Source: Chloroflexota bacterium (lineage in GTDB: Bacteria > Chloroflexota > Anaerolineae > Aggregatilineales > Aggregatilineaceae). From it: a stretch of DNA of 64,000 bases. The translations under genes and the position numbers were made by a program. Each line of letters opens with the position of its first letter. The first letter of the stretch is position 1. The DNA lies in contig JAAYCM010000129.1 of assembly GCA_012729765.1 (NCBI GenBank), positions 47,481 to 111,480 on the forward strand, given 5' to 3'. The notes below the pieces were generated by a model. That model ran no database searches. It saw only the letters and a list, made by a program, of their open reading frames with translations, and was not told the DNA's origin. This document shows, piece by piece, positions 27,650-48,229 of this stretch.

Positions 27650-28996
27650 CTACTGCACGACCGGAACGTTTGCCGCATCCCCTTCGACCAGGATATGCAG
27701 CTTGGATACCCAGCCGTTACCGAACGGGCTTTGTACCAGCCACCAGCCGCGATCGGGACTCTGGCCGATGATCGGCATACGGGTGCGGGCCGGTACGCTG
27801 CCCAGCGACGAGAATGCGCTGTTCGGACCGGACCGGATATTGAGCGCGCCGGTCGCCACAAATGCCACCGGCCCGGTAAGCTGTGGCGCGGGGGCCTCGC
27901 CGCCACCCTGGCCATCCGTTGGCGTGGATGCTCCGCCCGGTGCAACGATTGGCACGCCGGCGGTGTCACCGCGTGCGATGACGAAGCGGGTGCTCACCCA
28001 GCCGTTGCCGAAACTCGTCTCGATCAGCCACCAGCCGCCATCTGCCGAGCGGCCAATGATGCGCCCCTGATCGCCACCGGCCAGAGTGCCGATGTCGGTA
28101 TACTGCGCGCCGGGCCCGCTGCGCACGTTGAGCGCGCCGGTATTGATGATTGCCACCGGGCCGCTCACCGGGGCGCCAGCGGCAGGAGCGGCCACCGGCG
28201 CGGTCCCGAATTCGTTGCGCAGGATCAGGTAGCGCGCCGACACCCAACCGCTGCCGAACGGCGACTGGACCTGGTACCACGCGCCGTCCGCCGACCGGCC
28301 CAGGATCGCCAGCGTATCACCGCCGCTCACCCGGCCCAGCGACGCATAGTTGATGCCCGGTCCGCTGCGCACATTGAGGAAGGCGGTCGAAACGATCCCG
28401 AACGGGGCATCCGCCGTCACGGGCACCGCTGCCTGCGCCGCGACGGGGGCTGCCACACCGGGCGCGCTGACATGTGCCGCCGAAATCCAGCCGGTGCCAT
28501 AGGCCCACCGGATTTCCAGCCAGGTCCCATCCGCGTTCTGCCCGATCACCAACACCTGATCGCCGCGCCCAAGCTGGCCGAGACGGGGCGCGTTCGGTCC
28601 GGCGCCGCTGCGCACGTTCAGAATGCCGCTGACGGTCGCAATCGGGCCAGGGTTGCGCACCGGAACATTCCCGGCATTGGCTGCCGTGACGGCTGTCTTG
28701 GCAACCCAGCCCTCGCCGAAGCGCGTATTGACGTACCACCAGCCGCCATCGGGACTCGCAGCCACAATGGGCACGACTTCGCCGGACGGCAGCACACCGA
28801 TAATGTAAAAGCCATTACCCGGCCCGCCGCGCACATTCACGGCCCCGCTGGATGTGGCATAGGGGCCGGTCTGCGCCGCGCGATCGGTATCCGGCACGGT
28901 CGAACTGGCGGCGGCTAGCTGCGCCGGAGCCAGCAGCCACGCGACGCTTACGATTGCCAGGAAAACAGCCAGAATTCTGAAGGGCACACGCTGCAT
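27650..28996 (-). CDS. Secreted protein with five tandem bacterial SH3 (SH3b) domains
   Basis: Start moved to ATG 28996 (MQRVPFRILAVFLAIVSVAWLLAPAQLAAA, a signal peptide, with GGAGG Shine-Dalgarno upstream). The track start at 29239 runs through the tRNA-Leu gene. Five repeats of G.LN(V/I)RSGPG....LG......(I/V).G.S.DG.W..(V/I)....G.GWVS. Confidence 0.85.
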   Translation of the reverse strand: MQRVPFRILAVFLAIVSVAWLLAPAQLAAASSTVPDTDRAAQTGPYATSSGAVNVRGGPGNGFYIIGVLPSGEVVPIVAASPDGGWWYVNTRFGEGWVAKTAVTAANAGNVPVRNPGPIATVSGILNVRSGAGPNAPRLGQLGRGDQVLVIGQNADGTWLEIRWAYGTGWISAAHVSAPGVAAPVAAQAAVPVTADAPFGIVSTAFLNVRSGPGINYASLGRVSGGDTLAILGRSADGAWYQVQSPFGSGWVSARYLILRNEFGTAPVAAPAAGAPVSGPVAIINTGALNVRSGPGAQYTDIGTLAGGDQGRIIGRSADGGWWLIETSFGNGWVSTRFVIARGDTAGVPIVAPGGASTPTDGQGGGEAPAPQLTGPVAFVATGALNIRSGPNSAFSSLGSVPARTRMPIIGQSPDRGWWLVQSPFGNGWVSKLHILVEGDAANVPVVQ

Positions 28997-29136
28997 GAGG
29001 AAGCCTCCTGTCAGACTGGGGAATAAGTTCTGGTTCCAGGTTGTGGACGCTGTGTGCAGTGTATGTCGATTTGCCGGGAGATGCAAACAAAAAACGAGCC
29101 GTCCAACTGACCGCTCGTCCCATTCAATCCTGCTTA

Positions 29137-29222
29137 TGGTGCCCTGGAGAGGACTCGAACCTCCACGCCCGAACGGGCACAGGCCCTCAACCTGCCGCGT
29201 ATGCCAATTCCGCCACCAGGGC
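29137..29222 (-). tRNA. tRNA-Leu (anticodon GAG), long variable arm, CCA encoded
   Basis: Reverse complement: GCCCTGGTGGCGGAATTGGCATACGCGGCAGGTTGAGGGCCTGTGCCCGTTCGGGCGTGGAGGTTCGAGTCCTCTCCAGGGCACCA. Anticodon loop TTGAGGG. T-loop GGTTCGAGTCC. Confidence 0.9.
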
Positions 29223-29346
29223 ATCGCTGTGAGTGACATTATACACGCGCAAAATCAGATGTCAATGGTGGCGGGGCGCCCGCTGGCTGCGTACAATCAA
29301 CACGCTGGTGATTGGCTTGAAGCCGCTTGATACAGGATAGGGAAAG

Positions 29347-37453: not shown

Positions 37454-38935
37454 TCACATAAAATCGTCTGGATCAGGCAGGGGCGTGCTTTTGGCCGCGT
37501 CATCCACGCGCAGCGGGTCAGTGCGAGCATAATAGGCGCGGGTCGTCTCAACTGAACGGTGGCCGAGATAGTCCTGCACCACGTCCAGTGGGTGCCCGGC
37601 GTTGATCAACTGTGTGGCGCGCCAGTGCCGGAAGTCGTGCGGTGTGATCTGGCGCAGGCCCAGGGCGCGTGCGGCGCGCTGTACGACCCGCCACGCCACG
37701 ACCCGGCTCATCCGCTGGCCGTCGTAGCGGGGATCGTGGCTGACGAAGAGCGGCACATCGCCGCTGGTCGAGCCGCGCAGATTTGCGCCGCGCGCCTGGA
37801 TGTAGACCCGGATTGCGGGCAGCGAGTCGAAGAAGCGCAGATTGTAGCTGTGGCCGCCTTTGCCCGTGACCTCGACGCGCAGCACTTCCTGCCGGTTCAG
37901 GTAGCGATCGGGGAAATCGTGCAGGTTCAGGCTCAATACCTCGCTGATACGCCCGCCGGTTTCGGCCAGGGCGTGCAGCAGCGCCCGATTGCGCAGCCGG
38001 GCCAACTCCCAGCGCGCGACGCGCTCATCATCAGCACCAGCCTTGCGCAGCGACGGCGGGAGCGGCTGGGTGTCATAATAGTAGATCACTTCCTCGATGT
38101 GATCGGGTGGCTGCAGCGGGCCGCTGCGTTTGGGCCGTGCGCGCAGCTCGTCCCGTACAATCCGCCGGGCTTTTGCCAGCGGAAAGCGTGCCGGCAGCCA
38201 GCCGTGATCGTCCAGAAACTGGAACCAGCTTTGTACGCCAGCTAACCGTAGCTCGACGGTAGTCGGCTTGTAGGGGCGGCCATCGGCAGTATTATCGCTG
38301 GGTGAGAGCAGCCACTCGGCAAAATGCAGAAAAATCGGCGCGTCGTTGGGACCAAGCGCGGCAAGCGGAATGGCATCCGGCACGACGTAGGGCCGCTGCT
38401 GGATCGGCAGACGGCGTGTGCCGGTGCGATCACCTAGAAACATCAGGAATAACTCGATGGAACGCTCGTAGGCGGCGACGGTATGCGCCGATTTGAGCGT
38501 GGCGCGGTCCAGGTAGGCGTCACGCGCATCGCCCAGCGTCAGATCGCCGTCGGGTGTAGGCAGTCGTTGCAGCAGGTGTTTGAGTTGGCGCTCCACGTCG
38601 AGTGTCAGGTCTTCGACGTCCATCCCATCCAGATACCAGGGCAGGGTTGGCGTGTGGCGAATCAGCACCGGGATGAGCAGCCGATCATACTGCCGGGCCG
38701 CTGCGCAGCGTTTCATGACGCGGTCTGATGTCGCACTGTCCGGGCTGACCAGCACCATCACGGCCAGTGCCGTCTGGATGGTGCCCTCAATCTCTTTATC
38801 CCACTTTGCGCCGCCGTGCTCAGGAGTGTCGCTCTCGACGACAGTGAGGTAGCCCTGGGCTTCGATCTGCCGTTGGAGCCAGTGTGCGAACTCCAGATCG
38901 CTTGCTGTGCAACTCAGAAACACAGTTTGGGGCAT
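37454..38935 (-). CDS. Tyrosine recombinase/integrase with an N-terminal TIR-like domain (fusion)
   Basis: 493 aa. N-terminal ~125 aa: VFLSCTASDLEFAHWLQRQIEAQGY...ALAVMVLVSPDSATS...LLIPVLI (TIR_2-like). Core-binding region TVAAYERSIELFLMFL. Catalytic residues: R in ETGGRISEVLSL, HDFRHWRAT (H-x-x-R), GHRSVETTRAYY (H and nucleophile Y). Confidence 0.85.
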   Translation of the reverse strand: MPQTVFLSCTASDLEFAHWLQRQIEAQGYLTVVESDTPEHGGAKWDKEIEGTIQTALAVMVLVSPDSATSDRVMKRCAAARQYDRLLIPVLIRHTPTLPWYLDGMDVEDLTLDVERQLKHLLQRLPTPDGDLTLGDARDAYLDRATLKSAHTVAAYERSIELFLMFLGDRTGTRRLPIQQRPYVVPDAIPLAALGPNDAPIFLHFAEWLLSPSDNTADGRPYKPTTVELRLAGVQSWFQFLDDHGWLPARFPLAKARRIVRDELRARPKRSGPLQPPDHIEEVIYYYDTQPLPPSLRKAGADDERVARWELARLRNRALLHALAETGGRISEVLSLNLHDFPDRYLNRQEVLRVEVTGKGGHSYNLRFFDSLPAIRVYIQARGANLRGSTSGDVPLFVSHDPRYDGQRMSRVVAWRVVQRAARALGLRQITPHDFRHWRATQLINAGHPLDVVQDYLGHRSVETTRAYYARTDPLRVDDAAKSTPLPDPDDFM

Positions 38936-39462
38936 CGCGCGTGTCCTTTTTGCCGTTGTATGTTACATAAGATTACCAAGTATAACATTTGTATCATTAT
39001 GTTAAACCTATATCGCAAAGGATGCAAATCGCGCAGCCCACCCTGATCCCTATATCCCACACCTGCACGCACAATAAGACGGGCGGGGTTTGTGCGCTTA
39101 GGGGCAAGCAGTTGGAGCCACCTGCACATGCAGCCCACCCGCCCGGCATTTTCCATCATGACTCGCTGCAGTCACACATTGCTTTGATCGTCGCACTGGA
39201 TCATCGCTTGCTGCGTTGTGTACTCGCTTGCAAGATCGCGTTGCATCATCTCCCCAGGCGCGCTTGTACTTAACGTCACAATCTTCGCGTCATATGTTAT
39301 TTTGTCCTTGCTTCCGACGGCTGTAGCGGGGTCATGCTGGCTCATTACAACATCCCTCGCCGATATCCCAAAAAACAAAATAAGCATTTGGCTAATTAAA
39401 TCAGTATAGATGAAGTAATAAATGTTCTAACTTCCTCTTATCTGAAATTCATATAGTGCGGC

Positions 39463-39492
39463 TTGACGTGAAGGATTTCACGTGGCTATACT
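39463..39492 (+). promoter_or_regulatory. Sigma70-like promoter for the RND gene with an embedded 7-4-7 palindrome (candidate operator)
   Basis: TTGACG (39463..39468), 18-nt spacer, TATACT (39487..39492). Perfect inverted repeat ACGTGAA-GGAT-TTCACGT at 39466..39483 between the hexamers. Confidence 0.5.
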
Positions 39493-39558
39493 CTATCGAT
39501 ACGTTCCCCTCGCCGGCTCCTGCCCCTGGCAGGGCTTGCATGTACCCTGGAAGGCCCT

Positions 39559-42500
39559 ATGCGCTCCTTTTTTGATGCTGTTACCCGATTCTCACTCCGT
39601 TTCCGTTGGATAACCCTCCTGATATCTGCGGTGCTGGTGGCTGTCGGAGTTTTTGCCGCCACACAGCTCAATATTGCGCTGATTCCGTCGGTAGACTTCC
39701 CTTCAACCTTTATCCTGGCACGCAGCCATGGTGGCACCAGCGGCGATCTGATGCTGCAGACCTATAGTATCCCGATCGAGCAGGCTGCCGACACGGTCGA
39801 AGGTGTGATCAACCACGAGTCCAGCACCACCACCGGCTTTGCTTTTCTGCAAATTCGCAACGAGTTCGGCCTGGACATGACCGATCTACGGGCCGAACTG
39901 CGCGCCGCGCTGGATACGGTCGAACTGCCGGTACGCACGCTCACGGCGCCTGAAGGGACATCCCCCGCCGAGATGATCGCCGCCCTGCCCCCGGATGTCG
40001 TGCTCTACTTGCAGGTGCGCTCGTTGGACGAGGGCATTAGCTTTCTGCCGCAGCTCAGCCGCGAGGTGTGGTTGAGTTTCTCACCGGAAGTACTTGGCGC
40101 GTTGCCGGAAGGCACGCTGGACGAGATCGACCCGATTCTTGCCGGCGAACTCCGCGTTAAGGCCGTTGGGGAACCACAGCCTTTGCCGGATCTGGCACAG
40201 ACCGAGCCACCGGGGCTGCCCGAAAGTTGGCAGGCCGACCGCTTCGAGACAGCCGCCGATCTGGCCGAACTGACCGGCGTCCGGACTATGGCGGAAATCC
40301 TGAACGCCTTCATGACCAGCGGCGAGATCGCCGGCCCGCTGATGTACGTCTCCGATCTCACCGAGGCCGATCTGGAATTGATCAAGGCCGTCTCCGAGAG
40401 CTGCCGCACGTTCAACCAGACCGAAAACGGCGATGGTGAGGACGCAGCCGAAGAAGCCGCGATATGCTCAATGCTGACCTACCTGGATGGTGACGCCCTG
40501 GCGGCGCTGATCACCCACTTCGATCTGGCAGACGGCGATCTGGCAGCAGCGTTGGGCCTGCCGGCTGACTACTTCGATCAGCTTGGGCAGGAAGACCGCA
40601 GCCAGCTTGCCACCGGCGTGATCGCTTCGCTGCTGAGCGACGAATCCGCCCCGCGCGATGTGCTGCTGCCGCCGGAATGGCGTCTGGAGCCGCCGCGACT
40701 GATCACCTTCAGCCTGGCCGATATCCCACTCGGTATCATCAGCATCAGCGCCGATGAATCAGAACTTTCGCGCGAAGAGCTGCGCCAGTTGGTCGAGAAC
40801 GAGGTCATTCCACAGCTTGAAGCGCTCGATGCGGTGGCCGACGTAGCCGCCCAGGGTGGTGAGCGCATCCGCCCCGATCTGCTCAATGCTGCGCTGGCAG
40901 CCGAAGGACTGGACGAGCGCATACCTGAAGATGAAGTTGCCAGCACTGCTGAAGCGGACACAGGCGAAGCGGATGCGATGGCGGAAGAACCCGCCGGAGA
41001 ATCGGAAGCAGCCCCTGTCCAGCGGGAAGAAGGTCCGGCGCTGCCGGCAAGCTGGCGTGCCTTTGCCACTTCACTGCCCGGCGTCGAAGAACTGGACACG
41101 GCTGATGACCTGCTCCAAATTCAAGGTATGCCCCCCTCTGCCCTGCTCAATCAGGCCGTGACGATGGCTGCCGAGAATGAGGCAGTCGCGATGTTTGTCA
41201 ATCGCGCTCTGACCGACCTCTCGCCTGAGGTGCTGCTCTATCTGGCCGAGCACGAGGAAGGCTTCTTTGATAACCTCGCGCTCGAAGTCCTGCAGGCGCT
41301 CGCACCGGAAACGCTCAGTGCCCTGCCGGATGACGTGCAGGAGCGCGCCAGCGCCGAGCCGGCTCCACCGCTAAGCGAATTCTGGCAGCGCCTGGGCCGC
41401 AAGCCGGAACTCGGCGGGGCAGGACTGACAACCGCCGCCGATCTGCTCGTGCTGGACGGCGGACCAGCCAGCGTGCTCAATCGCATCGTGATCGAGGCGC
41501 CGGACGTCGTGCGCTTCTATGCCGTCCAGTTAGTAAATTCGCTCTCGCCCGACGCGATCAGCTATCTGGCCGCCAATGACGCGGATTTCCTGGGCGATCT
41601 TGATCCCCTGGCCTACTGCTATTTTTCGGTTGAGGCGCTCAATCTTGAGGATGTGCGTGCCGTCTGGTCCGATCAAGATTGGGTCTGTGGCGAGACGCCG
41701 CTGCTCGACATCGCCGAGGGCCATGCCCCATCTGCCGTGCAGACATTGAACAGTGGGACGGAACAGGCCGAGGAACGCGTTCACGATCCTGATGCCCCGG
41801 CCCTGCCCGCCAGTTGGTCCGGAATCGCCAGCTTTGTCGGCGCACAGGAGTTGAACACCGCCGACGATCTATTCTATGCGACCGGCAGCAATGGGGAATA
41901 TCTCACCCCGTCGGCCCTGCTCAACAGCTTCGCCAGCCCCGACGGTGCGCCGTTTGTGCGCGCACTGACCGCCGCCCCGCTGCTGTATGTGGCCGACTGC
42001 GACCAGGGCCAGCTCTGTGAGAAAGGCTTCTTTGATAACCTCACCGACGAGCTGCTGCTCCTGCTCGCGGATGAAGCCGCCGCCGGATTGCCCGACTCTG
42101 TCCAGAGCCGGCGTGAAACAGCCCGGCGCGGTATCTACACGCCAGTTGACTCGGTCACGCGCACCAACGGCCAGAACAGCTTGCTCCTCAACATTGTCCA
42201 GGAAGGCGACGCGAATACCGTCTCGGCCTGGGGCGATGTGGAAGGGGTTTTGCACGATCTCGAAACACGCCATCCGGAGATTGATTTCGAGGTTGCCTTC
42301 GAGCAGGCAAGCTATATCGAGGAGTCAATCAACGGCGTTGCGCGCGAAGGTGGCCTGGGCGCGGTGATGGCCGTCATCGTGATCCTGATCTTCCTGCACT
42401 TCAGCATCCGCAGCACGCTGGTGACGGCGATCAGCATCCCGACATCGGTTGCGCTGGCGTTCATCCTGATGAAATGGGTGCCAGGCAACGTGCACGACCT

Positions 42501-44304
42501 GCTCTACCCGCTCAGCCAGGATGCCACCGGGGTCGCCGCCAGCATTCTGACCTTCATCCTGCGCCTGTTTCCGGAAGATGTCAGCCTCAATATCATGACG
42601 CTCTCCGGCCTGACGGTTGCGATTGGCCGCATCGTAGACGACTCCATCGTCGTGCTGGAAAACATCTACCGCAACATCCAGGCCGGCGAAAACCGGCGCG
42701 AGGCGATCCTGCACGGCACACGTGACGTGTCGGTGGCTATCTTCGCCGCGACAATCACGACGGTTGTTGTCTTCCTGCCGATTGGTCTGTTTGGCGGCGT
42801 GATCGGCGCGTTCTTCCTGCCATTTGGTCTGGCAGTCACGTATGCGCTGCTGTCATCGTTCGTGATCGCGATTACGGTTGTGCCGGTGTTGGCCTACCTG
42901 TTCATCACCAAAGAATCCCTGCCCGAAGAGCACCACAGCCGCATGGAAGATGTCTATCGCGGCGCGCTGCAGTGGGCGCTGGCGCATCGCTGGGTCATCA
43001 TCGCCGTTGCGACGATCACTTTCCTGGCCGGTATGTGGCTGCTCACCCAACTCCCGACCGCGTTCCTGCCAGCTTTTGGCGAGCCAAGCATCACGGTCAC
43101 CGTCAGCCTGCCCGGCGCGATCGATGGGCAGCCAACCACGATTGCCGTAACAGACGCTAAGGTCCGCCGTCTCGAAAACTATGTGCGTGATCTGGAAGGT
43201 GTGGAAACGATTCAGACGCAGGTTGGCGGCGGCGGTCAGGAGAGTGTGTTCGTTAGCTCGACCACAATCTCCCAGACTGAAGCGACACTGACCATTGGTG
43301 TCGAGGATGCCGACGCGCTGGAACGCCTGACGCCAGAGGTGCGGCGCGAAGCCGAGCGCATCTTCAACGATCTTGATCGTGATGGAACTCCCGATGAAAG
43401 CCAAACGAACGTCACCGTCTCCGGAGCGTCTCTCAGCGAGCAGGGATTCGGTGGGTTTGCTGTTGTGGTGAGTGGTGATCCCAAGGACCCGCCGCCCCTG
43501 GCCGAGCTTGAGCAGTACGACGAGCAGATCGTCGCCACGCTGGAGAGTATCGAGGGGATCACCAATGTCGAGAGCAGTCTGGGACTGGTTTCAGGCAGTG
43601 GGGGCGACGTCTCACAGACCTATATCCGCATTGATGGCATCCCGGCAGCACGCTATACCGCCGAGCTGGAAACCGAGGATACACTTGGCCTGACGCAGGA
43701 TGCAATTGCCGAGGTACGCAAGCTGGACCTGCCGGCGAACGTGGTTGTGAGCGAAGGCTTCGAATCGCAGCAGCAGACTGAGGGCTTCCAACAGACGTTC
43801 ATCTCGATGGGAATTGCCGTCGTGATCGTCTACTTCGTCATGCTGCTGACCTTCGGCTCGCTGGTACACCCCATCACCATCCTGTTCAGTCTGCCGCTGG
43901 CGGCGGTCGGCGCGGCGGTCGGGCTGGCCGTCACGGGCCGCGTCCTGGGGTTGTCCTCAGTCGTCGGCCTGCTGATGCTGGTTGGTATCGTCGTGACGAA
44001 CGCGATCGTGCTGATCGACCGGGTGCAGACCAATCGCAAGATGCGTGGGATGGGGGTTGAGCAGGCTTTGCTCGATGGGGGGACGACGCGGCTGCGTCCG
44101 ATCCTGATGACGGCGATCGCAACGATGGTCGCCCTACTGCCGTTAGCGATTGGGCTGTCCGAGGGCGCGATCATCGCCGCCGAGTTGGGCACGGTCGTGA
44201 TTGGCGGGCTGTTCAGCAGTACCCTGCTTACGCTGCTTGTCGTGCCAGTGGTCTACAGCCTGTTCGATCAGGCACAGCGAGCTGTCGCGCGCCGACTGCG
44301 TTAG
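39559..44304 (+). CDS. RND-superfamily efflux/export permease (AcrB/HAE-like) with a greatly expanded first extracytoplasmic loop
   Basis: 1581 aa. N-terminal TM1 and porter-like start (FFDAVTRFSLRFRWITLLISAVLVAVGVFAA...IPSVDFPS). TM2-6 begin near aa 927 (GGLGAVMAVIVILIFLHF). The second half has typical length (TM7 WVIIAVATITFLAGMWLL, TM8-12 from about aa 1414, ending TLLVVPVVYSLF). Confidence 0.9.
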   Translation: MRSFFDAVTRFSLRFRWITLLISAVLVAVGVFAATQLNIALIPSVDFPSTFILARSHGGTSGDLMLQTYSIPIEQAADTVEGVINHESSTTTGFAFLQIRNEFGLDMTDLRAELRAALDTVELPVRTLTAPEGTSPAEMIAALPPDVVLYLQVRSLDEGISFLPQLSREVWLSFSPEVLGALPEGTLDEIDPILAGELRVKAVGEPQPLPDLAQTEPPGLPESWQADRFETAADLAELTGVRTMAEILNAFMTSGEIAGPLMYVSDLTEADLELIKAVSESCRTFNQTENGDGEDAAEEAAICSMLTYLDGDALAALITHFDLADGDLAAALGLPADYFDQLGQEDRSQLATGVIASLLSDESAPRDVLLPPEWRLEPPRLITFSLADIPLGIISISADESELSREELRQLVENEVIPQLEALDAVADVAAQGGERIRPDLLNAALAAEGLDERIPEDEVASTAEADTGEADAMAEEPAGESEAAPVQREEGPALPASWRAFATSLPGVEELDTADDLLQIQGMPPSALLNQAVTMAAENEAVAMFVNRALTDLSPEVLLYLAEHEEGFFDNLALEVLQALAPETLSALPDDVQERASAEPAPPLSEFWQRLGRKPELGGAGLTTAADLLVLDGGPASVLNRIVIEAPDVVRFYAVQLVNSLSPDAISYLAANDADFLGDLDPLAYCYFSVEALNLEDVRAVWSDQDWVCGETPLLDIAEGHAPSAVQTLNSGTEQAEERVHDPDAPALPASWSGIASFVGAQELNTADDLFYATGSNGEYLTPSALLNSFASPDGAPFVRALTAAPLLYVADCDQGQLCEKGFFDNLTDELLLLLADEAAAGLPDSVQSRRETARRGIYTPVDSVTRTNGQNSLLLNIVQEGDANTVSAWGDVEGVLHDLETRHPEIDFEVAFEQASYIEESINGVAREGGLGAVMAVIVILIFLHFSIRSTLVTAISIPTSVALAFILMKWVPGNVHDLLYPLSQDATGVAASILTFILRLFPEDVSLNIMTLSGLTVAIGRIVDDSIVVLENIYRNIQAGENRREAILHGTRDVSVAIFAATITTVVVFLPIGLFGGVIGAFFLPFGLAVTYALLSSFVIAITVVPVLAYLFITKESLPEEHHSRMEDVYRGALQWALAHRWVIIAVATITFLAGMWLLTQLPTAFLPAFGEPSITVTVSLPGAIDGQPTTIAVTDAKVRRLENYVRDLEGVETIQTQVGGGGQESVFVSSTTISQTEATLTIGVEDADALERLTPEVRREAERIFNDLDRDGTPDESQTNVTVSGASLSEQGFGGFAVVVSGDPKDPPPLAELEQYDEQIVATLESIEGITNVESSLGLVSGSGGDVSQTYIRIDGIPAARYTAELETEDTLGLTQDAIAEVRKLDLPANVVVSEGFESQQQTEGFQQTFISMGIAVVIVYFVMLLTFGSLVHPITILFSLPLAAVGAAVGLAVTGRVLGLSSVVGLLMLVGIVVTNAIVLIDRVQTNRKMRGMGVEQALLDGGTTRLRPILMTAIATMVALLPLAIGLSEGAIIAAELGTVVIGGLFSSTLLTLLVVPVVYSLFDQAQRAVARRLR
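39940..42130 (+). repeat. Acidic internal repeat modules within RND loop 1 (protein-level repeats)
   Basis: At least four copies of a module with LP(A/E)SW...(T/E)(A/T)ADL...PSALLN...LSP(E/D)(V/A).YL...FFDNL..E.L..L....LP(D/E). Examples: PGLPESWQADRFETAADLAELTG; GPALPASWRAFATSLPGVEELDTADDLLQ...LSPEVLLYLAEHEEGFFDNLALEVLQAL; LSEFWQRLG...LTTAADLLV...LSPDAISYLAANDADFLGDL; APALPASWSGIASFVGAQELNTADDLF...GFFDNLTDELLLLLADEAAAGLPDSV. Confidence 0.7.
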
Positions 44305-44337
44305 CACCCTGCCCTACCGCATTTCCAACCGCTCTAA

Positions 44338-44664: not shown

Positions 44665-45225
44665 TCATTCGGAATCCCGCATGGGTGCTTGCCACGTGCT
44701 CTCGCTGCGTCCCTCGTCTCGATTTCCCACACGCGCCGCCACAAACAGCCAGTCCGACAGCCGGTTGAGGTAGTGCAGCGTATGCAGGTTCACGTCCTCG
44801 GATTCTTGCAGCGCCACCAGCCAGCGCTCAGCCCGGCGGCAGACCGTGCGCGCCTGGTGCAGAAACGCGCCTGCCATCCCGCCGCCCGGCAGGATGAAGT
44901 TCTTCAGCGCGGGCAGCCCGCTTTCCCACACATCGATCTCGTGCTCCAGCCGCGTTACCATCGCCTCGGAGACACGCACAATCCATTTAGCCTCGGCATC
45001 CAGCGGCGTCGCAAGATCGGCCCCCACCACAAACAGGTCATCCTGAACCCGCACCAGTGCTTCATGCAGCTCGGACGTCAGATTTTGAGCAACTACCAGC
45101 CCCAGTATGGCGTTTAACTCATCCACCGTCCCGTAAGCATGCAGGCGGAGATGCGCCTTGCTGACTCGCCCACCGGCAAACAGGCTCGTCTCGCCCTCGT
45201 CGCCGGTCTTTGTGTAAATCTTCAT
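44665..45225 (-). CDS. PduO-type ATP:cob(I)alamin adenosyltransferase
   Basis: MKIYTKTGDEGETSLFAGGRVSKAHLRLHAYGTVDELNAILG and LPGG...AFLHQARTVCRRAER are typical of the PduO/MMAB family. ATG 45225 preferred over GTG 45231. Confidence 0.9.
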   Translation of the reverse strand: MKIYTKTGDEGETSLFAGGRVSKAHLRLHAYGTVDELNAILGLVVAQNLTSELHEALVRVQDDLFVVGADLATPLDAEAKWIVRVSEAMVTRLEHEIDVWESGLPALKNFILPGGGMAGAFLHQARTVCRRAERWLVALQESEDVNLHTLHYLNRLSDWLFVAARVGNRDEGRSESTWQAPMRDSE

Positions 45226-45235
45226 GACCACGCCT

Positions 45236-47458
45236 TTACTCTAATTCATTCTCATCTGCTATCGGAAGCATGACAAAGACAGTTGTTCCCTTGCCCGGCG
45301 TGCTTTCCAGACTGATTTCGCCAGCGTGCCGGTCTACCACCGCCTTGACCAGGCTCAATCCCAGGCCGGAGCAGCTTGATCGGGCCAGCCCTTGCTGCTG
45401 CCCACGATAGAAGCGCTCGAACACGCGCGGCTGCTCCTCGGTCGAGATGCCAACCCCGGTATCCCGAACTTCGATCACTACATGCCGGTTGCGCACAACC
45501 GCTGCGACGCACACCGATCCCTGCGGCGTAAACTTGATCGCGTTCTCAACCAGGTTGATAAACGCCTGCCCCAACTGCTGAGCATCGCCCAGCACCGGCG
45601 GCAGCGTGCAATCAATCTCCAGCCGCAGGTCCAGCCCTTTCGACTGTGCCTGGGCGCCCATCTCCTCGACCGCATGCCGCAGCACATCGTCTACCGCGCA
45701 TAGCTCATAGGCCGGTGTTCCGGCCTGCACGCGCTCCAGGTCGAGAATTCCGCTGATAATGCGGTACATGCGCGTGAGTTGTGCCCAGATGATATCCAGA
45801 TATTCGCGCATATCGTCGTTAAAGACCGCTTCGCCGTCCTCGTTGAGCAGTTCCAGATAGCTCATCGCCGCCTGAAGCGGGTTCTTCAGGTCATGGCTGG
45901 TCATCTGCACCATCTGGCTTTTGAGCCGATCCAATTCCTTAAGCTGCGTCACATCGTTGAGCACGGCCACCCACCCGACCGCGCGCGGCTTGCCCAGTTC
46001 CGCCACATGACACAGATAGGTGCGTTCCTGGGTGCCGATTTCGTAGACATGCACACGCCGCCGCTTCAGATCGCGCAGCGCCCGGCCCGCATTCTGGGGC
46101 AGATACGAGCGCGGCACACGTTCGATCAGCGGGGTGCCCACCGCCAGATCGTCCGAGGCGTTCATCAGCCCGACCGCCGCCGGGTTGGCGAACATAATCC
46201 GGAACTGGCGATCAATCGCCACCACCGGGTTTTCGGTGCCGGTCAGGACGATTTCGAGCCGCTCTTTGGCCGTAGTCAGGTCGCCCAGCAGGTTACGCTC
46301 CGCCTCGAACAGCCGGCTGTTGGTGATCGCGACCGCCGCCTGCGGCCCCAACAGCTCCAGCAGGTGCATGTCCTCACGGTCAAACAGCCGCCCCTGCCGC
46401 CCCTGGATCACCAGCAGCACGCCGACCACCTCGCCCGCAAACATCAGCGGCGCACCGATCACCGCCCCGAACGCTTTGCGCGCCCAGGGCATATCTTCCT
46501 CGCCCTTCCAATCGCGGTAATAATGCTCCACCCGGCGGCCCCGCTGTTCGACCGCCACCGTTCCGGCTACACCGCTGCCCAGCGGAAGCTCGATCCCGAC
46601 GTACTTTTCCGGCAGGTTATACACCGCTGCCAGTTGCAGCCGGGAGTTATTCTTGAGGAACATCGCCGCGCCGTCGGCTTCGAGCAGCCCTGTCGCCTGC
46701 GCCGCAATCGCCGCCAGCGTCTCTTCCAGGTGCAGCCGGCTGGTAATCGCCAGCCCGACATCGCGCACCGCCTCAAGCTGCTTGGCGCGTCCCAACAGCG
46801 GGGCCATAATCTGCTGCCGCACCACGCCATAACTGATTATCAGCGCCGCGATCGAGCTGGCGATCTCGGCCACACCCATCATGCGAAAACGCGGACTGAG
46901 CAGCCCGGCCATCTGCCCCAGCGCAAACAGCAGGATGCCGATGATCAGCGCCCGCCCCCGGATTTTGCGCCGGTCGCGCCAGACAAGGACCACCGTCGCG
47001 CCCAGAAAGGCCAGGTACAGCGCGACGCTGACCGGGTCGAAATCGTAGCGCAGCACGCCGTCCGCCGACACTTCGAACGGGCGCGGCGCGTTGCCGATCA
47101 GCAGCAGCACCTGATAGAAAAAGACCAGTCCAAGCCCGGTGAGGGCGACCCCGCGAAACCAGCGGCCCTGCACCCCCGTGATCACAGCGCTGTAGATATA
47201 AATACTGATGCTCGCGCCGGAGAATCCCACATCCAGCAGGCGCAGCCCCATCTGGATTGTCCCCGGCCCGGCGTTGACATACGCCGCCGCCCGTCCCAGG
47301 AATGAGCCGGACGCCCAGATGATCACCATGAACAGAAACAGGGAGAAGTAGCGGTTGGCTTCGCTGGTCGGGTCTTGCCACAGGATCAGAATCAGCAGGC
47401 CCAACGACAGCGTGAGCGTCAGGCCGTTGAACACCAGGACGGCAACATTGGGCGTCAT
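45236..47458 (-). CDS. Sensor histidine kinase (multi-TM N-terminal sensor, GAF, PAS, HisKA, HATPase_c)
   Basis: 740 aa. About 6-7 hydrophobic helices in the first 215 aa, then a GAF-like region, a PAS-like region, H-box MTSHDLKNPLQ, N box NLVENAIKF, G boxes DTGVGI and GLGLSL. Confidence 0.9.
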   Translation of the reverse strand: MTPNVAVLVFNGLTLTLSLGLLILILWQDPTSEANRYFSLFLFMVIIWASGSFLGRAAAYVNAGPGTIQMGLRLLDVGFSGASISIYIYSAVITGVQGRWFRGVALTGLGLVFFYQVLLLIGNAPRPFEVSADGVLRYDFDPVSVALYLAFLGATVVLVWRDRRKIRGRALIIGILLFALGQMAGLLSPRFRMMGVAEIASSIAALIISYGVVRQQIMAPLLGRAKQLEAVRDVGLAITSRLHLEETLAAIAAQATGLLEADGAAMFLKNNSRLQLAAVYNLPEKYVGIELPLGSGVAGTVAVEQRGRRVEHYYRDWKGEEDMPWARKAFGAVIGAPLMFAGEVVGVLLVIQGRQGRLFDREDMHLLELLGPQAAVAITNSRLFEAERNLLGDLTTAKERLEIVLTGTENPVVAIDRQFRIMFANPAAVGLMNASDDLAVGTPLIERVPRSYLPQNAGRALRDLKRRRVHVYEIGTQERTYLCHVAELGKPRAVGWVAVLNDVTQLKELDRLKSQMVQMTSHDLKNPLQAAMSYLELLNEDGEAVFNDDMREYLDIIWAQLTRMYRIISGILDLERVQAGTPAYELCAVDDVLRHAVEEMGAQAQSKGLDLRLEIDCTLPPVLGDAQQLGQAFINLVENAIKFTPQGSVCVAAVVRNRHVVIEVRDTGVGISTEEQPRVFERFYRGQQQGLARSSCSGLGLSLVKAVVDRHAGEISLESTPGKGTTVFVMLPIADENELE

Positions 47459-47486
47459 AGCGGCTCAGAAGGGGAGCGCCGCGCGC

Positions 47487-48185
47487 TCAGTTAACTTGCT
47501 TTTCGAAGCGGTAGCCGACCCGGTGCTCGGTCAGGATATAGACCGGGTTGGCCGGGTCCGGCTCGACCTTGCGCCGGAGCTGGCTGATATACACGCGCGG
47601 GTAATAGACGTCATCGACATATTCCGGTCCCCACACCTGCTCCAGCAGCTCACGCTGCGGCACGACGCGTCCCGCGTTCTCCAGCAGCACCACCAGCAGC
47701 TTGAACTCGGTCGGCGTCAGGTGGATTTTCTGGCCGTTGACATGGACATGCCGCCGCTGCAAGTCGACGCTCAGATAGCCATCGTTGTAGCCGGCCTGCA
47801 CTTCTGGCGTGATCATCTGCGACCGGCGCAGCAGCGCCTGCACCCGCGCCACAAATTCATTCAGCCGCACCGGCTTGACCAGGTATTCGTCAGCCCCCGC
47901 GTTCAGCCCGATCACAATATCCTCTTCGGTGATGGCCTGCGCCGACAGCATCATCACCGGCGTTTCGGCCACCTCACGGATGCGCTGGCATACCGTCAGC
48001 CCATCCATTTCGGGCATCACGATATCCAGAATCACCAGATCGGGATGGTCGGTATGAAAGGCGCGCAGCCCTTCCAGGCCGTTCCCCGCCAGCGTCACAT
48101 TGAAACCCTCGCGCCGCAGCTTTCGCCCCAGCGCATCCCGAATCGCCTGCTCGTCGTCTACAATCAGCACTTTCGTCGTCATCAT
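47487..48185 (-). CDS. OmpR/PhoB-family response regulator
   Basis: Internal ATG at 48185 gives MMTTKVLIVDDEQAIRDAL...DLVILDIVMPEMDG plus a winged-helix C-terminus (LTPTEFKLLVVL, EHRVGYRFE). The track start at 48458 overlaps rbsK and has shadow-like composition. Confidence 0.92.
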   Translation of the reverse strand: MMTTKVLIVDDEQAIRDALGRKLRREGFNVTLAGNGLEGLRAFHTDHPDLVILDIVMPEMDGLTVCQRIREVAETPVMMLSAQAITEEDIVIGLNAGADEYLVKPVRLNEFVARVQALLRRSQMITPEVQAGYNDGYLSVDLQRRHVHVNGQKIHLTPTEFKLLVVLLENAGRVVPQRELLEQVWGPEYVDDVYYPRVYISQLRRKVEPDPANPVYILTEHRVGYRFEKQVN

Positions 48186-48229
48186 GCCCGGCTCGCTCCC
48201 CACTCCCATATCACCCCGACACAAATGAT

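Follow-up and report, generated by a model that had tools for sequence, protein, structure and literature searches.

The long-loop permease described here is a 1581 amino acid (aa) member of the superfamily of resistance-nodulation-division (RND) proteins, encoded in a 64,000 nucleotide stretch of DNA, referred to as the window, from a Chloroflexota bacterium of the class Anaerolineae (Aggregatilineales, Aggregatilineaceae; GenBank assembly GCA_012729765.1, contig JAAYCM010000129.1, positions 47,481 to 111,480 of the forward strand). Judged by alignment, the pump keeps the engine of 12 transmembrane (TM) helices and all four porter subdomains of its relatives, but its funnel is dismantled: the docking subdomain DC is deleted, the hairpin-bearing part of subdomain DN is replaced by three copies of a small helical module, and one and a half further copies lie at the junction of the porter subdomains PN1 and PN2. 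The funnel, or docking domain, is the part through which HAE-1 pumps meet their adaptor and channel. Profile searches show the module to be a domain specific to the lineage, which is also found as the C-terminal end of fasciclin and alpha/alpha-toroid proteins that are secreted. It is tentatively proposed, as a reading that is possible and that is preferred here, that the pump is an adaptor-independent RND exporter whose modules associate with a layer of the envelope, cap the porter exit and tie or extend that exit into the layer.

By sequence the pump is an ACR_tran protein. This Pfam family (PF00873) matches it with 448.7 bits against a cut-off of 28 (E 4.9e-134), split over five stretches, while MMPL (PF03176) at 28 bits exceeds its own cut-off of 20.5 but remains far below ACR_tran and is thus not the best-fitting family. 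The NCBIfam subfamily models fall short of their cut-offs (NF033617, RND_permease_2, 386 bits vs 1250; NF000282, 248 vs 1250), and the best match among PDB sequences is MdtB (9lyq_B; 1e-57 with phmmer and 3.5e-90 with the family profile). The start codon of the open reading frame (ORF) fits the N-termini of its homologs in a consensus of 30. Hydropathy places TM1 within aa 11-46 and the next TM helix from aa 926, giving a first loop of about 890 aa, and in an AlphaFold2 model of aa 1-975 the membrane helices occupy 16-36 and 916-946; taken with the MdtB alignment these data predict 12 TM helices, of which TM1 and TM7 are each followed by a large extracytoplasmic loop. An earlier note on this DNA, made from the sequence alone, had described a protein of 1581 aa in which TM1 ends near aa 36, TM2 starts near aa 927 and loop 1 spans about 890 aa, and all of these values hold for the open ORF, by hydropathy and in the model.

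The same note had seen a single insertion in loop 1. The extra sequence is real, but it is divided between two sites (insert 1, aa 125-375, and insert 2, aa 456-852) on either side of an ordinary stretch (aa 376-455), and the note had missed that the docking domain is replaced and that DC is gone from loop 2. In comparisons with PDB sequences by phmmer and the family profile, aa 14-121 correspond to MdtB 19-124 (TM1 and PN1), aa ~376-440 (375-440 in the profile) to MdtB 145-212 (PN2 in its first half, and DN as far as its first strand and helix) and aa 870-972 to MdtB 285-387 (the second half of PN2 and TM2). Insert 2 stands where MdtB has residues ~213-283, which by the AcrB nomenclature in the available text of PMC8277102 make up most of the DN funnel subdomain, including its hairpin. 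The intervening stretch matches ordinary Anaerolineae RND proteins of 1040-1057 aa; the note had allowed that the sequence between aa 130 and 860 might align throughout to ordinary porter and docking subdomains, and this is true of the 376-455 piece, whereas aa 125-375 and 456-852 are inserted. The two sites are confirmed when Anaerolineae RND proteins of ordinary (L063, 1049 aa; L064, 1033 aa) and intermediate type are aligned with the pump. Insert 1 begins with a half module (aa ~136-201), continues with module A, which is divergent (aa ~215-360), and ends in an invariant LPPEW motif; it is restricted in alignment and tree to a two-insert clade, and the relatives L066 (1410 aa) and L068 (1761 aa) have the DN-site insertion only. 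The insert had also been called strongly acidic, which it is (net charge -12 to -13.5 per 100 aa), but this is not specific to it, since the porter core and loop 2 have an equal charge (-12); the linker at 456-489 reaches -29, and cytoplasmic neighbour proteins carry -0.4 to -5.4. As a separate observation, the main building block of the DN-site insert in L066, L068, P0136 and P0157 is a shorter unit of ~75-90 aa (LPESW ... TTADLTPE ... APQLL ... LTPE ... LPxxF), of which there are up to seven or more copies with a single full module at the close, and the number and type of insert units differ strongly among Anaerolineae lineages.

The second half of the protein had been credited with normal proportions, and this does not hold. 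Loop 2 comprises ~242 aa, in which the pump, L066 and L068 are without ~85 aa that L063, L064, L065 and L067 have, and the family profile covers 112 positions of it against 196 residues in MdtB. The position of the gap is presumably that of the DC funnel subdomain, the exact boundaries of which are taken from the AcrB literature. In the membrane domain the residues D1027/D1028 (AcrB D407/D408), R1513 (R971) and T1518 (T978) are invariant, but K940 aligns to an invariant T1480, so that the proton relay, which in the available text of PMC8277102 comprises D407, D408, K940, R971 and T978 of AcrB, is incomplete. L063 and L064 retain Lys at this position. The change of the TM10 Lys to an invariant Thr-Asn (aa 1480-1481, 43996-44001) is shared with L065-L068 and runs across a whole Anaerolineae clade. 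A further peculiarity is a stretch of ~30 additional residues between TM2 and TM3 (aa ~975-1003, 42481-42567), predicted on the cytoplasmic side, that is common to L066 and L068 and absent in L063-L065 and L067.

Segment-wise BLASTP within loop 1 pairs aa 487-573 with 741-828 (46% identity, E 5e-12) and, more weakly, 512-573 with 623-681 (2e-5), 143-184 with 554-591 (3e-4) and 216-272 with 745-819 (4e-4), and these pairs together connect all copies. An iterated hidden Markov model (HMM) of 48 family members resolves them into a half module at aa ~140-188 and four modules at 215-317, 490-595, 600-701 and 744-850 (P0001), in agreement with the earlier count of at least four copies of a ~100 aa module. 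According to the HMM every long protein has the half module and four modules and shorter relatives have 2-8 units. The module follows the consensus PxAPxLPxSW ... ELxTAxDL ... LLN ... LSPExxxYL ... FFxxL ... EVLxxL ... LPxxVQ. In a model of aa 480-865, with a mean predicted local distance difference test (pLDDT) score of 91.7 and a predicted template modelling (pTM) score of 0.70, it forms an all-alpha unit of ~105 aa that starts with two short helices and a helical hairpin and continues with five short helices of 4-10 residues, each beginning with S/T/D-Pro; insert 1, in the model of aa 1-975, has pLDDT values of mostly 85-98. Among 15 close homologs identity is 0.45-0.57 in the modules, 0.52 in PN1 and 0.17 in the linker 456-489. 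The ratio of nonsynonymous to synonymous substitution rates (dN/dS) between two congeneric genomes is 0.12 for insert 1, 0.088 for insert 2, 0.078 for PN1 and 0.077 for loop 2. The modules are folded and under purifying selection, and because the model is confident, dN/dS is 0.09-0.12 and identity is on a par with PN1, the module is regarded as a real domain.

The insert could also be a repeat array without function that expanded in a permissive surface loop, or the product of mis-assembly, as loop repeats can expand neutrally and the linker is unconserved. This is hardly credible, since it is contradicted by the dN/dS values, pLDDT above 90 and PN1-level conservation just given, as well as by the recurrence of the gene elsewhere. 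A word-index search with aa 125-865 returned 40 proteins, of which 33 are 1498-1696 aa long and identical in layout; where an organism is given these homologs come from Bellilinea, Anaerolineaceae, Aggregatilineales, Anaerolineae or Chloroflexota metagenome-assembled genomes (MAGs), and they are named only 'efflux RND transporter permease'. Near-identical DNA turns up in metagenomes of sludge, landfill and bioreactor origin that stem from several studies, and the stretch was detected in runs of 14 studies, although only 11 runs hold at least one fifth of its sampled words. Contigs of three DNA runs, two of which are labelled sludge and landfill, and of one metatranscriptome run were aligned to the stretch. 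In the independent run X3 two contigs span 39400-41252 and 41321-43568 without gaps, and each junction between core and insert is thereby bridged. A fusion or assembly artefact was therefore rejected, and the ORF is not the fusion of two genes that the earlier note had considered. A metatranscriptome run contains two exact contigs (42245-42426 and 44139-44333; 5/30 bins), which could be DNA carry-over and so are no proof of transcription.

The module also occurs on other proteins. A module profile of 28 copies was run against 1.84 billion representative proteins and gave 123 hits at E<=1e-3, 65 of these at <=1e-10; judged from the names that the sources give the homologs, the carriers belong only to the window's own class, Anaerolineae. 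Pfam, run on 60 of the 123 hits, identified 14 RND fragments (including P0076, DeoRC + ACR_tran), eight ALTTAQ-repeat proteins with half-module matches, seven fasciclin proteins whose extreme C-terminus is a single full module (FAS1 stretches numbering two in five of them, three in one and one in one) and six terpene-cyclase-like alpha/alpha-toroid proteins with a C-terminal module; one protein had Rrf2 only, one Cornifin only (P0130, below cut-off) and 23 had no family. Module B can be aligned along its entire length with the C-terminal module of the secreted protein P0122, at 32% identity (106 aa, E 9e-10; 32-36% across comparisons). Seven secreted-protein sequences were inspected, all of which have a cleavable-looking signal peptide, no lipobox Cys and no C-terminal TM helix and end in ...LPEEVQARA; where an organism is given, the secreted carriers come from an Anaerolineales, Anaerolineae or Chloroflexota MAG. 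The earlier note had raised the possibility of a stand-alone module protein: the module does exist outside RND pumps, in the form of a C-terminal end to fasciclin and toroid proteins. Among the functions it had suggested, docking to the envelope seems to fit best, as the module ends secreted signal-peptide proteins that have no visible anchor. The evidence speaks neither for nor against the accessory domain for polymer or lipid export that the note had also suggested.

At L074:7043-11770 and L075:7430-12030 the toroid+module gene is the first of an operon with Peripla_BP_2, FecCD and ABC-ATPase genes identified by Pfam, and L076:3628-8328 has a matching gene order, judged from ORF layout alone. 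The L074 operon adjoins QueG, presumably a B12-dependent enzyme. The secreted toroid+module protein may act at the surface as the capture protein of an importer for corrinoids or siderophores, and its place at the head of the importer operon is a setting in which a capture protein should stay on the cell.

With a module on a toroid protein that heads a FecCD-type uptake operon beside a binding protein, ligand handling is conceivable, and the pump modules might bind cargo as ligand or carrier domains that receive or deliver lipid, polymer or another hydrophobic substrate at the porter domain. Some neighbours of the pump among eight loci of the related family f2 would suit such a role: HMG-CoA reductase and polysaccharide deacetylase are both found nearby in L033, L035 and L038, the reductase only in L034 and the deacetylase only in L036 and L037. 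However, this synteny is among close kin, the genes are on the opposite strand or separate, and they are missing from the window. Furthermore, the fasciclin, toroid and RND partners have no common ligand, and fold searches with the three-module model recognised no pocket or ligand-binding fold, all of which renders cargo binding quite improbable. It has also been considered that the pump modules dock the module-bearing secreted proteins in the manner of cohesin and dockerin, which would make the pump a surface scaffold or sorting platform. One module type is found on both kinds of protein, and some genomes of family f140 (G839, G859, G844 and G807) have both, but in the window's own genome and the f2 genomes the module is confined to the pump, in all six g431 genomes it is confined to a frame of 435-483 aa, presumed secreted, and G780 is without a close RND homolog. 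The two kinds of module protein are therefore independent of each other, and since each exists without the other, module-module docking on the pump was rejected as very improbable.

No clear counterpart of the module was found among known families and folds. Pfam searches with four module pieces and the three-module stretch at E<=10 gave chance rows only (DUF6880 0.04, Apo-VLDL-II 0.028) and no row for PF20080 (ALTTAQ). With the three-module model as query, Foldseek found no clear match in the PDB (best E 0.037, TM-score 0.14), a structure search of BFVD found none either (best E 0.033), and an Atlas look-up returned one sub-threshold row (0.77). The earlier note had suggested a comparison of a predicted structure with known folds; aa 480-865 could be modelled with confidence, but the comparison gave no clear match, and no new fold is claimed from this model. 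In the reverse direction only, the module profile matches the eight ALTTAQ-repeat proteins mentioned above, three of which also have Big_5 domains, and its sole PDB match is HeliScrew4 (9zem_A; E 1.1e-5 over 33 positions), which is considered a likeness of pattern and not of descent. ALTTAQ repeats and the 8-residue alpha-helical screw may resemble the second half of the module (profile ~48-97) in their short helices begun by S/T/D-Pro, whereas the first half (LPxSW...TADDL...LLN) is without counterpart in them. The screw structures compared are the designed HeliScrew4 (PDB 9ZEM) and the natural 7QLR, and 8-mer helical screws are described in the available text of 10.64898/2025.12.04.691947 as having Pro at N1 and S/T/D/N caps. 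Hydrophobic autocorrelation over the whole insert gave no clear 8-residue period, and the periodicity is therefore argued solely from the helices of the model. No description of the ALTTAQ repeat was found in the searched literature, the scope of which excludes subscription journals and 1.7 million unsearchable PMC articles. It is doubtful, though conceivable, that the module is an envelope-targeting domain with a rare short-helix 'screw'-type fold that would serve surface retention and provide an adaptor-free link from pump to outer layer within a single polypeptide.

The genomic partners of the pump differ from those of ordinary RND permeases. Both ordinary RND genes (2/2, L063 and L064) have an adaptor gene of the HlyD family immediately upstream, whereas none of the 13 loci of the clade with Thr at the K940 position (the window, the eight f2 loci and L065-L068) has an adjacent HlyD gene; a scan of the neighbouring genes likewise bears out the claim of the earlier note that no membrane-fusion or outer-membrane-factor gene is adjacent. 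In the window's genome (93.6% complete) there is no match to the OEP/TolC family or to Omp85, a single HlyD_3 ORF stands beside two ABC ATPase genes, and the one other RND-superfamily gene encodes an MMPL protein (381 bits) on contig C92. The bacterium appears to lack a classical outer membrane. In a member of another Chloroflexota class, Caldilineae, cryo-electron tomography revealed a multilayered envelope in which the cytoplasmic membrane is accompanied by an inner layer, an outer layer that is shared and a coat resembling an S-layer, with no clear outer membrane (10.1101/2025.08.19.671072). The idea of the earlier note that the insert is a periplasm-spanning substitute for an adaptor survives loosely, in that the adaptor gene is missing from the 13 loci, but there is no outer-membrane channel to be reached. 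An adaptor substitute that reaches a TolC-like channel was rejected, as no OEP or Omp85 match was found in the 93.6% complete genome.

The phylogenetic distribution of the module is narrow and patchy. A search with a single insert against the genome contig set found no relative, and with the module profile A3 only four of 401 genomes sampled across the phylum had a match, all of them in the window's class. In a class sample of 401 genomes aa 125-865 matched 48, but many of these hits are confined to the PN2/DN core piece of ordinary type, in frames that measure 1040-1537 aa. Profile A3 matched 63 of 121 genomes sampled from the order, distributed by family as f1 (the pump's own) 3/22, f2 16/21, f139 18/21, f140 19/19, f137 3/4, f138 2/10, f136 1/1 and f3 0/22. 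Four f1 genomes that are 98-100% complete have no close homolog of the pump core. In one f1 genome the module matches (G874:C195:2041-3093) are spread over short reading frames of 202, 408 and 611 aa, of which one contains an in-frame TAA, and this may represent a broken pump copy or poor assembly (1060 contigs). A quick IQ-TREE phylogeny of the last 690 aa (30 rows), rooted by the outgroup L063/L064 only and with quick support values that need care, recovers the Thr-type clade with support 100, in which L065 and L067 are basal and have kept DC. Within it lies a module-bearing, DC-less group of 26 rows (SH-aLRT, the Shimodaira-Hasegawa-like approximate likelihood ratio test, 93, not starred), which in turn includes the two-insert clade of 20 rows (100, starred). 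The survey of long-loop RND proteins and their partners that the earlier note had recommended thus points to an accessory pump of Anaerolineae.

In the proposed mechanism the module would associate with a component of the multilayered Chloroflexota envelope, which could be a wall polymer, the outer layer or the S-layer. On secreted proteins it would keep its carrier at the cell surface, and on the pump the array of modules would constitute a new cap above the porter exit that ties or extends the exit into the envelope layer. Amphiphilic or lipidic cargo from the membrane could thereby be released into or beyond the wall without adaptor or channel. Several points weigh against this proposal. 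The association of the module with the envelope is inferred, and the argument for retention depends on the lack of a lipobox and a TM helix in the seven sequences inspected. The position of the modules relative to the porter exit is likewise inferred, from models that cover aa 1-975 and 480-865. The envelope study concerns a different class, Caldilineae. With Thr in place of Lys940, even proton coupling of the AcrB type does not seem assured. Finally, the pump gene is accessory and its role dispensable, as only three of 22 other genomes of its own family have the module and the four near-complete genomes are without the pump.

An alternative that needs no external ligand is that the modules are an architectural replacement of the funnel: they would keep the protomers together, as the lost hairpins did, and make up an extended exit duct or stalk spanning the wall zone. 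In AcrB, according to the available text of PMC8277102, protomers are linked by hairpins of DN and DC, and these are exactly the parts that are missing from the pump. The modules are predicted to be rigid and helical, with short helices of the solenoid type in the second half, and a copy number that varies from 2 to 8 or more by lineage would fit a spacer of adjustable length. Nevertheless this alternative is unlikely, for it leaves the single module copy at the end of secreted fasciclin and toroid proteins unexplained. Moreover, insert 1 is off the known protomer-interface positions of AcrB, of which the PN1/PN2 junction is taken here not to be one. The envelope-associated exporter remains the preferred reading.

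The genes on both flanks of the pump gene are on the opposite strand. Upstream lies a gene for a fusion of TIR_2 and Phage_integrase domains, both identified by Pfam (a TIR-Xer recombinase, 37454-38935, -), and nothing links it to the pump. Downstream are a PduO-type cobalamin adenosyltransferase gene (44665-45231) and then genes for a histidine kinase that combines a 7TM region at its N-terminus with a GAF domain, and for an OmpR-type response regulator (45236-48200, -), a pair that is not beside the f2 homologs. The promoter scan found one site where 1.9 are expected by chance, which is no more than chance, and the match listed in the table is accordingly weak. Elsewhere in the window, an ORF of 529 aa (27650-29239, -) has about five internal repeats ending in ...GWVS/GWIS and resembles, by eye, a secreted SH3b-type repeat protein.

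Table. Features of the pump gene in the window, with the evidence on which each assignment is based
Feature	Position	Strand	Evidence or remark
Sigma-70-like promoter match, TTGACG, 18-nt spacer, TATACT	39463..39492	+	67 bp upstream of ATG; weak
Whole gene, 1581-aa RND (ACR_tran) permease, seemingly monocistronic	39559..44304	+	open ORF, Pfam
TM1 (aa ~14-36)	39598..39666	+	hydropathy; model helix 16-36
PN1 porter subdomain (aa 37-124)	39667..39930	+	
Insert 1 (aa 125-375), PN1/PN2 junction	39931..40683	+	repeat BLASTP, HMM, alignment
Ordinary PN2 first half with first DN strand and helix (aa 376-455)	40684..40923	+	profile alignment to MdtB 145-212
Acidic unconserved linker, probably disordered (aa 456-489)	40924..41025	+	identity 0.17 in close homologs, pLDDT 30-49
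Module B (aa 490-597)	41026..41349	+	BLASTP, HMM; pLDDT >90
Module C (aa 598-720), short extension	41350..41718	+	BLASTP, HMM, model
Module D (aa 744-852)	41788..42114	+	BLASTP, HMM, model
PN2 second half (aa 853-925)	42115..42333	+	MdtB 284-340; model strands 872-881, 908-915
TM2-TM7 (aa 926-1166)	42334..43056	+	D1027, D1028 in TM4
Loop 2 (aa 1167-1408), PC1/PC2 porter part without DC docking subdomain	43057..43782	+	alignment gap, profile
TM8-TM12 (aa 1409-1581)	43783..44301	+	T1480 for AcrB K940; R1513, T1518 kept

Knowledge of RND pumps comes almost wholly from Gram-negative tripartite systems and the mycobacterial MmpL proteins, and the pump could show how an RND engine is re-fitted to a different envelope. 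If the proposal is true, evolution would have arrived in the module-linked pump at an alternative to the tripartite design. The module itself is a candidate surface-association domain and a potential handle on the poorly known Chloroflexota envelope; it is small, confidently predicted and soluble-looking, and the bacteria that carry it are frequently met in activated sludge and bioreactors. The literature searched, within the scope given above for the ALTTAQ repeat, contains no description of a long-loop RND pump from Chloroflexota, of the architecture seen here or of the module.

Compared with the HAE-1 permeases AcrB, MdtB, AcrD and CmeB, the pump has the same 12 TM helices, the same PN1, PN2, PC1 and PC2 subdomains, the TM4 Asp-Asp pair and the TM11 Arg and Thr. 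It differs from them in the absence of DC, the reduction of DN to its first strand and helix, the two inserts of ~650 aa in total, the change of Lys940 to Thr and the lack of any adaptor or channel partner found. According to the available text of PMC8277102, HAE-1 permeases have a funnel composed of DN and DC with interprotomer hairpins, and their partners are a periplasmic adaptor and an outer-membrane factor. The pump thus departs from this class in its funnel, its partnership, its relay and its score with the NCBIfam subfamily models. The same text presents MmpL3 (HAE-2) and HpnN (HAE-3) as exporters of envelope lipids that have a reduced funnel or none and no TolC-type channel, in bacteria without a classical outer membrane (PMC8277102). 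With exporters of this type the pump has in common an RND engine with a reduced funnel, and its host, too, appears to be without such a membrane. The periplasmic coiled-coil insert of MmpL4/5 is an analogue of its helical extracytoplasmic extension, and an MmpS4-MmpL4 entry titled with a long coiled coil (9syt_B) appeared as a weak Foldseek row (E 3.7e-3, prob 0.21). Unlike the MmpL proteins, the pump is ACR_tran by sequence and its insert consists of globular helical modules, not of a coiled coil.

A likeness of function only may be drawn with the SLH, LysM, choline-binding and similar retention domains of monoderm bacteria, which are also terminal on signal-peptide proteins without lipobox or TM helix and also occur on unrelated catalytic or binding domains, although no sequence or fold similarity of the module to them was found with Pfam or Foldseek. 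No domain of the surface-retention type is known to occur inside an RND loop, and none was found in the literature searched. Set against these systems, the pump is of a known kind as an RND permease, and what is new is the funnel replaced by an array of modules, the second insertion between PN1 and PN2, and a module family outside Pfam.

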